Assembly: GCA_017616015.1 (NCBI GenBank)
Contig: JAFZYY010000015.1
Span: forward strand, 23,787-87,786
DNA from: Alphaproteobacteria bacterium
Lineage (GTDB): Bacteria; Pseudomonadota; Alphaproteobacteria; CAAGCB01; CAG-977
DNA length: 64,000 bases
Direction: 5' to 3'
The position numbers were made by a program, and so were the translations under genes. The notes below the pieces were generated by a model that worked only from the letters and a program-made list of their open reading frames with translations, was not told the DNA's origin and ran no database searches. Positions 4,086 to 62,065 of this stretch are shown here, piece by piece (position 1 is the first letter of the stretch; the number at the start of each line of letters is the position of its first letter).

Positions 4086-5357
4086 ATGACAAACAAAGTA
4101 GATACAACGACTCTACCGAAAGTAACGTTGCATGAACATATTGAAGGCACCGTTACTCCTGAAATGGCGGCGAAACTGGCTCAGCGTCATCATGTGACTT
4201 TGCCGGACAACTTTGTTATGGCTGAAGGGCAATACGATAAAAAAGATTTCCCGAACGGTCGCTATGCTTACGATGAAAGCGATTTCTGGGCTTTCATCAA
4301 TACATATGACAGCGTTGCGGATATGATGCGCACGCCGCAGGACTATTACGACGTCACCAAAGATTATCTGAGCAAGAACGCGGCTGAAGGCGGCGTTTAT
4401 GCCGAATTAATTATCTCGCCGGCTCATATGGCAATGGAAGTCAATCCCGAAACGGGAAAAAGCGAACTGTCGGCCGCGCGTTATCGCGCCATGATGGACG
4501 CCATTGCCAAAGCGGCGCAGGAAGTCAAAGAAGAAACCGGATTGGAAACGCGCTTCATTGCGACGGGCGTGCGGAATTTAGGCGCGGAAAACGTTAAGCA
4601 GGTCGCGGAATTTATCCGTGACAATCCGCATTCCATGGTAACCGGTTTCGGCATTGCCGGAAACGAACGCGCCGGAGAATTTGATGATTTCGCGGAAGCC
4701 CTGGCTATTGCCAAAGGCGCAGGATTGAAGCTGGCTCTTCACGCCGGTGAAATTCGCGGGCCTGAAAGCATCAAAGACGCCATTCGTTTGGGCGCTTCCC
4801 GAATCGGACACGGAGTTTCCGCTCCGCAGGATCCCGAAGTCATGAAAATGTTGGCCGAGAAAAATATCATGGTTGAAGTCTGCCCGACGTCCAACCGCAT
4901 TTTGGTTACGGATTTAAAAGGCGACCTGGCCAACCACCCCGCTCGTATATTGTACGATGCCGGCGTGCGCATTTCTTTAAACCCTGATGATGCCGGCATT
5001 TTCGGTACGCATACTGGGAAAGAGCATCGCATCAGCGCCGAAAAATTCGGCTTCACAAAAGCGGAAATGATGGACATTACTTTATGCGCGATTGAAAATT
5101 CTTTCGCTGACGTTAAAACGCGCAAACAGCTTAAAGAAAACGTTTATAAAAAAATGTCCGAAGAAGACCGCAAAGAATTGCGTGATTTAGCAGCTAACGC
5201 GAAAAATCCCGTTTTAAAGAAACGCTTGGAAACGCGTGTGGCGGAAAGCGAGAAAGTCGCAAAAAAGCTTGAAATCCAAAAACGCCGGACAAAAGCTTTG
5301 AATTCCATAAAAGCGACAAAAATGGCAATAATCAACAAAAAATCGGCCACACGATAA
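4086..5357 (+). CDS. add: Adenosine/adenine deaminase with a ~70-aa basic C-terminal extension
   Basis: Metal and catalytic motifs LHEHIEG, HAGE, RIGHG, EVCPTSN and SLNPDD are intact. The extension after the catalytic barrel ends in ...KMAIINKKSATR. Confidence 0.9.
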   Translation: MTNKVDTTTLPKVTLHEHIEGTVTPEMAAKLAQRHHVTLPDNFVMAEGQYDKKDFPNGRYAYDESDFWAFINTYDSVADMMRTPQDYYDVTKDYLSKNAAEGGVYAELIISPAHMAMEVNPETGKSELSAARYRAMMDAIAKAAQEVKEETGLETRFIATGVRNLGAENVKQVAEFIRDNPHSMVTGFGIAGNERAGEFDDFAEALAIAKGAGLKLALHAGEIRGPESIKDAIRLGASRIGHGVSAPQDPEVMKMLAEKNIMVEVCPTSNRILVTDLKGDLANHPARILYDAGVRISLNPDDAGIFGTHTGKEHRISAEKFGFTKAEMMDITLCAIENSFADVKTRKQLKENVYKKMSEEDRKELRDLAANAKNPVLKKRLETRVAESEKVAKKLEIQKRRTKALNSIKATKMAIINKKSATR

Positions 5358-5363
5358 GAAATG

Positions 5364-5393
5364 AAAAAAACCGCTGAAAATCAGCGGTTTTTT
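5364..5393. terminator. Bidirectional intrinsic terminator
   Basis: A7-CCGCTGA-AAA-TCAGCGG-T6 between convergent genes. Confidence 0.85.
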
Positions 5394-5426
5394 ATTGCCT
5401 AAACACTATACGCGTTTAATAGAGAG

Positions 5427-6332
5427 TTATTCCTTTTCCGGAGTATATTCCAAAGGCGGTTCGTCTTTAAACTTATCCACCCACAGCATAATGTGCTTTT
5501 GAAGCTGCAGTTCTATTGCGGACTTATCTTTAATCTTCTCTTTAAACCGTTCTTCAAAGCTTTTTTTATGCAGACGACAAGGCGATAATTTAGAAAATGA
5601 AACAAAATATTTAATATGACGCAACGCCGTATTGCCGAAGTGTAATTTATCTTTGACTTTAAAACGTCGGGATTCCGCGTCTGCAGCATACCTGCTTGTC
5701 AGCATAAAATCGACTTCGCCGGAAAGCAATTTACGAAAAGCGCTTTCCGCACCGTCAACGACTTCCAACTTTGTATCCGTCGGCAAAGATCCGCGAATTA
5801 ACGGCTCTATGACTTCTTCCCGGCGGATAACGCCCTTCAGTCCTTTCAGCTCGGAAAGATCCCGGACATCAATGGTCTTAGTATTTCTGGACACGACAAT
5901 AAAAGGATTACCGAAATACGCCGGATAAACATAATCCTGACCGGATTTCGCTTCATCGACATAATACGTTATAAACGAAAAAGCCGTATTGCCGCGCAAC
6001 AAAGCTTTTTGCGTTTGCTGAAAATCATCGAAAACAATATTTTTCATTTTCACGATCTTCAATTCATCAGCCGTTTCTTTCACAAGATCGACAATCAAAC
6101 CTTTATATTCTTCCTGCCTGTCTTGCGGATCCGGGACTCCCTCATTTATAACTTCAGTCCACGAAAACGGCGGATAATTCTTAATGCCTACGATTGAAAA
6201 CCGCCGATCCGATTCTTCTCCCCCGCAAACAATCAGAGGATCTTTTCCTCTTCTTGCCGGAGCCGCATAAACCTGAACACTACAAAGAAGCAAACAGAAA
6301 AAAATCATCGAACAAAACTTAAATCGCTTCAT
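5427..6332 (-). CDS. Periplasmic amino-acid-type substrate-binding protein (SBP family 3)
   Basis: Signal peptide from MKRFKF (6332; the ORF track extends to 6461). Motifs NYPPFSW, YKGLIVDL, DLSELKGLKG and LLSGEVDF. Confidence 0.8.
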   Translation of the reverse strand: MKRFKFCSMIFFCLLLCSVQVYAAPARRGKDPLIVCGGEESDRRFSIVGIKNYPPFSWTEVINEGVPDPQDRQEEYKGLIVDLVKETADELKIVKMKNIVFDDFQQTQKALLRGNTAFSFITYYVDEAKSGQDYVYPAYFGNPFIVVSRNTKTIDVRDLSELKGLKGVIRREEVIEPLIRGSLPTDTKLEVVDGAESAFRKLLSGEVDFMLTSRYAADAESRRFKVKDKLHFGNTALRHIKYFVSFSKLSPCRLHKKSFEERFKEKIKDKSAIELQLQKHIMLWVDKFKDEPPLEYTPEKE

Positions 6333-61244: not shown

Positions 61245-61247
61245 TTG

Positions 61248-61275
61248 TTGACTTTTCCTCTTTTTTGTATATAAT
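61248..61275 (+). promoter_or_regulatory. Near-consensus sigma70 promoter for the orphan gene at 61304
   Basis: TTGACT-16 bp-TATAAT, followed by a GGAGG RBS. Confidence 0.65.
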
Positions 61276-61303
61276 TTAGACAAATTTTTATGGAGGATTC
61301 ACG

Positions 61304-62065
61304 ATGGCCTTAAGTGTCGATTTTAAAAACGAACGCGTTTCTTTGTCTAAAGAACAGACTTACGAAGCTTTAAACGCTTATTTGGAAAACGCCTCTTTTA
61401 TAACCAGCGAAAAGACGCGCTCGCAATGGGAAACCTGGGAACGCAACTTAAAGGATTCTCCGTATTTTGAAGAAACCTATCAGCGCGTTTTAAAAGAACG
61501 GACGGAAGAACTGAAAAAACGCAATACGCTGATGGCGCGCCTTGATGTAAAGCTCAATCGTCTGGAACAGCATCAGGAGCAGATTCCCGAAGAAAAGAAG
61601 CAGAAAAAGACGTTGAAACAAAAAGCGAAAGAGGCCTTTAACTGCGCGAATCCGTATTTAGCCGCCGGCATTGCCGGAGCCGTGTTAACCACAGGCGTTT
61701 TGGCCGGCACCTCTTTGTGGGGCGCCATCAATGGCGTTGACGCGCAGTTCTGCGCTTCCGTTCTGGTAAAAGGAGCCGTAGCCGGCGGAAAAGTGTTGGC
61801 CGCCGGAACTGCCGTAACGGCCGCCCGCATGACGTTAAGCGCCGCTTTTGCGAATAAAGGCGGAAAAGAATTATTGGAAGCAAAAGAAGCTTTGAGAAAC
61901 CTGAGTGCTTTGAAAAGAGCTTTTGCCATTATCGAAGAAAAAGACAGAGTCAAAACCGGAAAAATTTCCGCAAAAGAACAGCCGCAAGTCTCTGCTCCCG
62001 CTGCGGAAAAACAGAAGCTTTCTCCGGTAATGCTGAACAGATTAAAGGCCGGTAAAGCTTACTAA
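61304..62065 (+). CDS. Hypothetical protein: coiled coil, Gly/Ala-rich hydrophobic hairpin, basic C-terminal tail
   Basis: 253-aa ORF with its own promoter and RBS; no signal peptide; ends KQKLSPVMLNRLKAGKAY. Confidence 0.7.
   Translation: MALSVDFKNERVSLSKEQTYEALNAYLENASFITSEKTRSQWETWERNLKDSPYFEETYQRVLKERTEELKKRNTLMARLDVKLNRLEQHQEQIPEEKKQKKTLKQKAKEAFNCANPYLAAGIAGAVLTTGVLAGTSLWGAINGVDAQFCASVLVKGAVAGGKVLAAGTAVTAARMTLSAAFANKGGKELLEAKEALRNLSALKRAFAIIEEKDRVKTGKISAKEQPQVSAPAAEKQKLSPVMLNRLKAGKAY

Follow-up and report, generated by a model that had tools for sequence, protein, structure and literature searches.

We analyzed a window of 64,000 nucleotides (the whole stretch from position 23,787 to 87,786 of the forward strand of contig JAFZYY010000015.1, GenBank assembly GCA_017616015.1) from an uncultured alphaproteobacterium. 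Two unrelated proteins that are encoded in this window, the adenosine deaminase Add (gene add) and a nuclease-fold protein that we term P0002 (the open reading frame, or ORF, at 31627-32238), belong to a class of proteins with an Arg-ended C-terminal tail: a disordered linker is followed by a short Ala/Leu-rich helix, by basic residues, and usually by [G/S/T]-Arg at the end of the chain. This tag is found on unrelated protein families, is conserved at the C-terminus, is depleted in proteins with Sec signals, and is distributed across genomes together with a type IV secretion system (T4SS). We are confident that it is a real, clade-specific tag that is common to unrelated proteins. Our preferred explanation, for which we consider the case to be evenly balanced, is that the tag is a translocation signal for the virB/virD4 T4SS of this clade.

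An earlier note on this DNA had drawn attention to the C-termini of Add, of P0002, and of a third protein, P0003 (the ORF at 61304-62065), and had proposed that they carry a secretion signal. Translation confirmed the stated coordinates of all three, and their final residues are exactly those quoted in that note. None of the three proteins has a Sec signal, as the note had also said: their N-terminal hydrophobicity is 0.45 (Add), −0.43 (P0002), and 0.54 (P0003), and none of these is hydrophobic. We used an N-terminal hydropathy heuristic with a threshold as the test for signal peptides, and not a dedicated predictor. Each of the three genes could plausibly head a transcription unit of its own: the genes on both sides of add are on the opposite strand, P0002 follows a gene on the opposite strand, and P0003 has an 11/12 match to a sigma-70-like promoter at 61248-61275 and a terminator with a 13-bp stem at 62097-62130.

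The host genome (G000) is described as that of a gut alphaproteobacterium. It is 2.09 Mb in 34 contigs and is 98% complete; members of the clade have genomes of about 2 Mb, and the homologues that come with a source name are all from a metagenome-assembled "Alphaproteobacteria bacterium." We predicted 1,894 genes in G000 with a simple codon-bias gene caller, and these cover 91% of the genome. Pfam scans took in the three proteins of the earlier note and 68 further proteins.

The gene add (4086-5357, + strand) encodes a protein of 423 amino acids. Its catalytic domain is clear (Pfam A_deaminase at residues 11-355, E = 1.7e-74; 263.9 bits on NCBIfam TIGR01430, for which the cut-off is 216.55), and there is only one match to it in G000. 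Beyond the catalytic domain lies a C-terminal extension of about 68 residues (residues 356-423; 5151-5354, + strand), and the last ~16 of these, ...KATKMAIINKKSATR (5307-5354, + strand), form the Arg-ended tail, as judged from the comparison of orthologues and from the scorer that is described below. The extension is present in all 27 family relatives and also in G029, G081, and G134. The tail could be read in 28 orthologues, of which 27 end in Arg (nine of them in Gly-Arg) and the exception ends in GRS; the consensus for the genus is ...R-F-A-L-L-A-Q-K-x-x-G-R. Among the more distant homologues that we read (G049, with 36% identity, G144, and G170), the extension was not seen, and the matches in G033, G028, G046, and G043 end near residue 340-352, that is, without it.

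P0002 (31627-32238, + strand, 203 amino acids) matches no family in Pfam or NCBIfam. Its AlphaFold2 (AF2) model has a confident core (predicted local distance difference test, or pLDDT, of 88.4; predicted template modeling score, or pTM, of 0.82), and structure matches to this model suggest a PD-(D/E)xK nuclease fold that resembles CdiA-CT toxins. The best match is 5j4a_C (Z of 8.7, which is barely above the level that the tool calls common; root-mean-square deviation of 2.2 Å over 101 aligned residues). The second is 4g6v_A (Z of 7.5), several restriction endonucleases come next (Z of 4-6), and the two leading Foldseek matches are also CdiA-CT chains (E of 0.01-0.02). A search of the sequences of solved structures with the P0002 profile gave nothing below E = 0.16. 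Residues D85, D95, and K97, which are candidates for the catalytic D...D/E-x-K residues of this fold, do not vary among the 23 aligned sequences. Judging from the model, the description of P0002 as "nuclease-like" in the earlier note is supported. The gene downstream of P0002 encodes a Sel1 lipoprotein and not an obvious cytoplasmic immunity protein.

In the model and in the family alignment, the end of P0002 consists of a disordered linker (residues ~181-190; pLDDT drops below 50 at 184-189), followed by a terminal helix and tail (residues 191-203, ...QQFALIAKGMGR, with the helix at 191-200), which together are encoded at 32167-32235 on the + strand. Homologues of P0002 are restricted to the clade. 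All 23 aligned sequences have the terminal Arg and 16 of the 23 have Gly at −2, and the linker varies in both length and sequence while the terminal Arg stays. The consensus for the tails of this family is ...A-L-L-R-Q-R-x-G-R, and the likeness of Add and P0002 at the level of the family consensus is the real basis of the earlier reader's impression of a shared ending. The retention of Arg in the two families suggests that there is purifying selection on the very C-terminus.

How widespread is this ending in the genome? We listed all 168 Arg-ended proteins in G000 and found a recurrent arrangement of an Ala/Leu/Ile stretch, basic or amide residues, and Gly/Ser/Thr-Arg. The linker ahead of it is poorly conserved and is often rich in Lys, Pro, or Glu; the helix is 6-8 residues long and rich in Ala, Leu, or Ile; and one to three basic or amide residues follow. 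Roughly, the consensus can be written as [KR]-x-x-h-A-h-h-x-x-[KR]-x(1-2)-[G/S/T]-R, with h standing for any hydrophobic residue. A terminal Gly-Arg occurs in 38 of the 1,894 genes, as compared to 6.85 expected from the frequency of the dipeptide inside proteins (Poisson, P = 1.4e-16), and the ends NGR, DGR, and GGR occur 6, 6, and 7 times, with about 0.4 expected for each. For the control ending Gly-Lys, we found 23 and expected 10.3. An all-against-all BLAST of the tails gave no large cluster (the leading pairs were paralogues, HU proteins, and low-complexity Lys/Ala tails), but tail BLAST did link Add and P0002/P0003 to two HExxH proteins, and this gave the lead to the tails of DUF6782.

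To score tails across families, we used a C-terminus-anchored, gapped BLOSUM scorer that was trained on 15 Arg-ended DUF6782 tails, and we applied it to the 1,814 non-DUF6782 proteins. At a score of 20 or above, we found 28 C-termini, as compared to 1.0 for internal windows, 7.6 for tails that were shuffled except for their last residue, and 2 for reversed tails; at 22 or above, there were 15 C-termini, as compared to 0.4, 2.8, and 0. The tail of Add ranks 5th of the 1,814, and that of P0002 ranks 139th. A second scorer was trained only on the tails of add orthologues from other genomes and was applied to 1,832 C-termini. It gave 20 C-termini at 22 or above (5.8 for shuffled tails), recovered many of the DUF6782 members, and ranked the tail of P0002 5th of the 1,832; all 23 tails of the P0002 family lie between the 96.7th and 99.7th percentile of the non-DUF6782 C-termini of G000. 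Both Add and P0002 have a net charge of +5 in their last 20 residues, which is in the top 6% of the 1,894 genes. We also tried a gapless, C-terminus-anchored position-specific scoring matrix with leave-family-out iteration, which was unstable (17-26 members) and noisy (an ABC transporter was near the top), and we took it as a lead only.

About 40 proteins in G000 carry the tag. The largest group is the DUF6782 family of putative HExxH metallopeptidases (19 paralogues, 15 of which end in Arg), and there are three orphan families, of 7, 5, and 2 members, whose genes are mostly arranged in tandem. The other carriers are a second copy of PepN (the domain ends at residue 875 of 951), PepF (575 of 622), two paralogous HAD hydrolases, two paralogous MBL-fold proteins, P0002, and Add (355 of 423). 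The PepN paralogue that neighbors the tagged copy has a domain that ends at residue 886 of 887 and has no tail. The placement of the tag is modular, as it caps extensions beyond complete enzyme domains and as there is an untagged paralogue of PepN. Among the 43 carriers, only one N-terminus is hydrophobic, versus 495 of 1,790 in the other proteins (P = 3e-5, Fisher's exact test, which is generous because paralogues are not independent). Thus, the earlier idea of a genome-wide set of proteins without signal peptides that have a lineage-specific tail and accompany the virB genes found partial support, with about 40 carriers and a tail that is kept in orthologues, but the motif is not the one that had been proposed. 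Nor are the carriers all "orphans," as many of them are recognizable enzymes. One strand of C8:172228-179878 carries, head-to-tail, the genes for the tailed PepN paralogue, for an orphan of 356 residues, and for a pentapeptide-repeat protein, together with the second virD4; the untagged PepN is just upstream.

Across relatives, the T4SS and the tag are found together. Among the 27 family relatives, virB4 is present in 26 and the exception (G026) has virD4; both types of virD4 are present in all 18 family relatives that we searched; and DUF6782 has 13-37 matches per genome in all 27. DUF6782 matches 23 of 401 genomes that were sampled across the class. Where virB4 was found, 44 of 60 DUF6782 proteins end in Arg (15/19 in G000, 9/14 in G019, 12/14 in G029, 5/5 in G081, 3/7 in G134, and 0/1 in G058), whereas in genomes without a virB4 hit only 2 of 22 do (0/4 in G046, 1/6 in G097, 0/8 in G170, and 1/4 in G144). 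Add splits in the same way: it has a GR-ended extension in G081 and G134 and no such tail in G144 and G170.

In G019, which belongs to another genus, four DUF6782 tails (loci L063, L081, L083, and L060) have one residue past the Arg (…GRD, …GRF, …SRS, and …VRS), so Arg is not always the final residue. In two of the genomes in which virB4 was not found, DUF6782 proteins also have extensions, of 67-174 amino acids (loci L178, L184, L189, L194, L197, L201, and L205 of G170; L179, L193, L198, and L202 of G097). The ends of these extensions are basic and rich in Pro and Gly (for example, ...PRPGP or ...PAGPGF) instead of Arg-ended, and they may represent a different address.

The window itself is chromosomal, and its T4SS genes, which were identified with Pfam, sit among housekeeping genes on the − strand. 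They encode a VirB11-like ATPase (7609-8586, T2SSE domain), a giant VirB10-like protein of 2,520 amino acids (8604-16169), a VirB9-like protein with CagX and SPOR domains (16145-17659), and two VirB8 paralogues (17672-18457 and 18675-19391). In the VirB10-like protein (Bflower_2, Bflower, RHS_repeat, and TrbI in Pfam), the TrbI/VirB10 domain (residues 2202-2397) comes after about 2,100 residues of beta-flower (around 20 Bflower_2 stretches), DUF3659, and RHS repeats. This is a very unusual layout for a core component of a T4SS. A 66-residue ORF with a Cys near its end lies between the virB8 paralogues (18474-18674, − strand) and might encode a VirB7-like small lipoprotein of the T4SS. Directly downstream of virB11 is an IS200-like Y1 transposase (7017-7532, − strand), with no virD4 after it. 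The full set in G000 is virB2, virB4, virB6, two virB8, virB9, virB10, virB11, and two virD4, spread over four loci; virB2, virB4, virB6, and both virD4 genes lie on contigs other than the window's, with virD4 on C12 and C8. There is a TcpQ-like gene near virB4 on C22.

The canonical VirD4 (C12:7336-9765; L013:1839-4265, − strand) has a C-terminal extension of about 100 residues that is rich in Asp and Glu (poly-Asp/Glu) and ends in the aromatic-acidic motif YDDFIDEKF. The length of the extension varies among orthologues (L149-L158) but the final YDDFIDEKF is conserved. The second paralogue (C8:177617-179878) also has an acidic tail at its end, which is not conserved. The poly-acidic extension of VirD4 resembles the tail of TraD that binds TraM. 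The acidic tail and the basic tag have complementary charges and could plausibly pair with each other electrostatically. A complex prediction for VirD4 (C12, residues 115-809, alignment of 11 rows) with residues 354-423 of Add (23 rows) scored 0.00 against a mark of 0.32; it was run without controls and weighs neither way.

We propose that the clade marks about 40 cytoplasmically made proteins per genome with a modular C-terminal tag, which would be read by the scattered, chromosomal virB/virD4 system, with the VirD4 that has the poly-acidic extension as the plausible reader. The substrates of the T4SS would then be DUF6782, the orphan families, P0002, Add, PepN, PepF, and the HAD and MBL proteins. 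The coordinates of the tandem arrays leave gaps that are too short for immunity genes, which would point to a non-bacterial target or a non-toxic cargo. In its most specific form (a clade-wide compact tag, h-A-h-h-x-x-[KR]-x-x-G-R-COOH, that is read by the acidic-tailed VirD4 and exports at least 40 proteins per genome, including DUF6782 and repurposed enzymes), we regard the proposal as tentative, and somewhat less probable than the general one. The link from the tag to secretion, and to the T4SS as its machine, is a circumstantial one from co-occurrence, and we view it as balanced between true and false.

Several observations weigh against secretion of tagged proteins by the T4SS or against the size of the effect. 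First, the 38 GR-ended genes collapse to 22 families, so that much of the repetition is paralogy, and simple counts therefore overstate the case. The pattern of a helix plus [GST]R is found in 22 families, as compared to 4.6 expected (4.8-fold), and a Lys-ended control pattern gives 23, as compared to 6.2 expected (3.7-fold). Second, some high scorers (an ABC exporter, EngA, and LpxB) are almost certainly housekeeping proteins and hence false positives. Third, the gene caller is crude: the choice of start affects N-terminal hydrophobicity, although it leaves C-termini untouched. Fourth, in 400-kb samples of two proteomes, 20 of 339 tails from the relative G019 score at 16 or above (10.3 for shuffled tails; terminal GR 3 times, with 1.5 expected), and 3 of 343 tails do so in the control G041 (3.8 for shuffled tails); these samples show the expected trend, but they are too small to count by themselves. 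Fifth, coupling proteins of the TraG/VirD4 type also occur in G170 and G144, which do not have the tag, so it is only this particular T4SS that co-occurs with the tag. Sixth, the tag-positive lineages look like one clade, and the co-occurrence may thus reflect a single event of ancestry; Add is 60-63% identical in the tag-positive virB4 lineages and 33-37% identical in the genomes without the tag. Finally, the sole copy of add carries the tag in every relative, which fits a role within the cell as well as it fits export.

This last observation leads to the strongest alternative, which is that the tag acts inside the cell (in targeting to the membrane or the pole, in binding nucleic acids or a chaperone, or as a C-terminal degron that is read by a protease) and that its carriers are not secreted. 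Besides the tagging of the genome's only adenosine deaminase, this would fit with basic C-termini being common (K-ended control patterns are also enriched, by 3-4 fold) and with the similar basic tails of Hsp15-type and HU-type proteins. However, it is hard to see why 19 metallopeptidase paralogues, a toxin-like nuclease fold, arrays of orphans, and duplicate peptidases would need one intracellular address. Pairs of tagged and untagged paralogues, as for PepN, look more like a cargo and a housekeeping copy. Also, the hydrophobic residues are contiguous (A-L-L) and are not spaced as they would be in an amphipathic membrane anchor. We consider an intracellular role to be unlikely.

A second alternative is that the tag directs its carriers into a different export route, such as type I secretion (ABC/MFP/TolC), vesicles, or some other one-step export, and that its co-occurrence with the T4SS reflects shared ancestry. 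Type I systems also read uncleaved C-terminal signals, five genes for TolC-like outer-membrane factors are present along with ABC exporters, the carriers lack Sec signals, and the co-occurrence with the T4SS is limited to one clade. But we saw no RTX domain or other domain of type I substrates on the carriers that we scanned, and no dedicated ABC-MFP pair lies beside the tagged arrays in the annotated loci. Furthermore, type I signals are usually longer (~50-60 amino acids) and are not rich in Lys or Arg. This alternative seems improbable. Type VI secretion was set aside as the machine because TssC is patchy (it is in 9 of the 27 family relatives).

Third, the tails might have no common function, with their likeness arising from paralogy in a few expanded families and from a general basic bias of C-termini. 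The collapse to 22 families, the similar excess in the Lys-ended control, and the several housekeeping proteins among the high scorers are as this would predict. In contrast, the cross-family scorers exceed composition-preserving shuffles, two unrelated families keep the terminal Arg across genera even as the linker diverges, the extensions are missing from outgroup orthologues, and signal peptides are strongly depleted among the carriers, all of which makes a lack of common function quite improbable.

The weakest alternative is the literal claim of the earlier note, that the translocation motif of the lineage is K-x-[RK]-LSP with a helix and then K-[AG] after it; although the motif is common to two proteins of the window and a Ser/Thr/Asp/Asn-Pro helix cap precedes the helix in several other tails (as read from the listing), the rarity of the motif, the chance-level frequency of LSP, and its poor retention among P0002 homologues refute it repertoire-wide, and we give it almost no weight. 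When we checked all C-termini for enrichment, K-x-[RK]-LSP was in just 2 of the 1,894 predicted genes, which are the two that had been cited, and a relaxed form was in 2 of 8,101 ORFs of at least 60 amino acids. LSP lies within the last 30 residues of 20 proteins, with 18.0 expected. The exact LSP is retained in only 2 of the 23 aligned P0002 homologues and in 4 of the 6 members of the P0003 family. When all 1,894 tails were compared with one another by short BLAST, those of P0002 and P0003 did not match each other even at E ≤ 1000. The LSP match between the two proteins is a coincidence, or at most one instance of a Ser/Thr-Pro helix cap.

P0003, which the earlier note had grouped with the other two, is a doubtful member of the tail class, and at best a divergent one. 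It is a helical protein of 253 amino acids (61304-62065, + strand; hydropathy and AF2) with a hydrophobic, Gly/Ala-rich center (residues ~113-180), and it matches no family in Pfam or NCBIfam. According to the family alignment, it ends in a linker and a terminal helix, ...KLSPVMLNRLKAGKAY (61955-62062, + strand). The layout of linker plus helix is seen solely in an AF2 model that is poor (pLDDT of 47.7), and a search of a protein atlas gave only sub-threshold leads (0.77 and 0.76). We found five homologues of P0003; their spread is patchy, and the family is present in 2 of the 24 family relatives that we searched. The consensus of the family, ...LSPAxxNKIKAAKAY(G), is not Arg-ended: four of the six members end in K-A-Y or K-A-Y-G and the other two in K-V-Y and K-S-Y, with K251 and Y253 invariant. 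The tail ranks 255th of 1,814 with the DUF6782-trained scorer and 113th of 1,832 with the add-trained scorer, and its last 20 residues have a net charge of +4 (top 12% of the 1,894 genes).

If the tag is a T4SS signal, it would have counterparts in other bacteria. Simple clusters of C-terminal residues that carry a positive charge or are hydrophobic are established T4SS signals, according to two papers (PMC3297438, PMC10025392). The VirB/D4 substrates of Agrobacterium (VirF, VirE2, and VirE3) are like the carriers in having a short, uncleaved signal at the extreme C-terminus with a net positive charge, and no Sec signal, and their type IVA machine reads the signal by way of its coupling protein, VirD4 (PMC10025392, PMC3297438). 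Unlike these, the tag has a contiguous hydrophobic core of the A-L-L type and a strongly preferred Gly/Ser-Arg-COOH end, and it is known from sequence alone. The Arg consensus of the Agrobacterium signals is R-x7-R-x-R-x-R, and there is no R-x-R-x-R run in the tails ...KATKMAIINKKSATR, ...LSPQQFALIAKGMGR, and ...LSPVMLNRLKAGKAY. By analogy, the tag might resemble the Agrobacterium class in how it works, without this consensus.

The Bep proteins of Bartonella, which are also alphaproteobacterial VirB/D4 substrates, have a bipartite signal of a BID domain plus a tail; the C-terminal tail is positively charged and poorly conserved, as stated in PMC10025392. In the proteins that we scanned with Pfam, no BID-like domain of ~100 amino acids lies ahead of the tail, and the element here is ~15-25 residues long and follows a linker. 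Both BID and the XVIPCD of Xanthomonas are larger signal modules (PMC3297438 and PMC10025392). XVIPCD is similar in that it is a lineage-specific C-terminal module on unrelated effectors, and in Xanthomonas it is bound by VirD4 (PMC10025392, PMC8740702). The tag differs in being a short peptide, and the tight arrays of tagged genes leave no room for immunity genes. XVIPCD is a folded domain of ~120 residues, and the antibacterial effectors that carry it are paired with immunity genes. Our Pfam scans found no folded C-terminal domain of ~100-120 residues of the XVIPCD or BID type, but instead a linker and a helix of ~12 residues.

The Dot/Icm effectors of Legionella form large repertoires that are also rich in paralogues, lack signal peptides, and have short C-terminal signals with hydrophobic residues near the end (PMC3297438). 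However, the Legionella system is of type IVB and has a DotL/IcmSW adaptor complex, whereas the system here is of the virB/virD4 type and the tag is basic. Dot/Icm signals are often acidic, with an E-block. Finally, the targeting peptides of encapsulins and bacterial microcompartments share the architecture of the tag (a globular cargo, a flexible linker, and a short terminal helix, with one peptide on unrelated enzymes). We set this kind of targeting aside because neither microcompartment shell genes (PF00936) nor encapsulin genes (PF04454) were found in the 98%-complete genome.

Other features of the window are worth recording. A [FeFe]-hydrogenase-like protein with several 4Fe-4S domains (59793-61244, + strand) adjoins a fused EIIA-HPr-EI protein of the phosphotransferase system (57073-59622, − strand), both identified with Pfam, and together they suggest an anaerobic, sugar-fermenting lifestyle. 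Three type IVb pilin genes (bundlin/PilS-like) lie in tandem at 52203-54521 (+ strand), and their C-termini are almost identical (...CGTGG..SS.TL.YK). A pair of ORFs at 34977-36632 and 36562-38262 (+ strand) encode ~550 amino acids each, overlap by 71 bases, and have no match in Pfam or NCBIfam.

Signals for type IVA systems are ill-defined, and finding the effectors of such a system usually requires experimental screens. If our proposal is correct, then the effectors of an uncultured lineage, which would number about 40 per genome, could be predicted from genome sequences or metagenomes. DUF6782, for which a full-text search of the literature found no paper that names it, would gain its first functional context, as a family of T4SS effectors. 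An adenosine deaminase, peptidases, and a CdiA-CT-like nuclease fold would be possible and unexpected cargo. Should the link to the T4SS fail, the tag would remain a strongly conserved C-terminal module that deserves an explanation. If the link holds, it would suggest a life in intimate contact with a eukaryotic cell for these bacteria.

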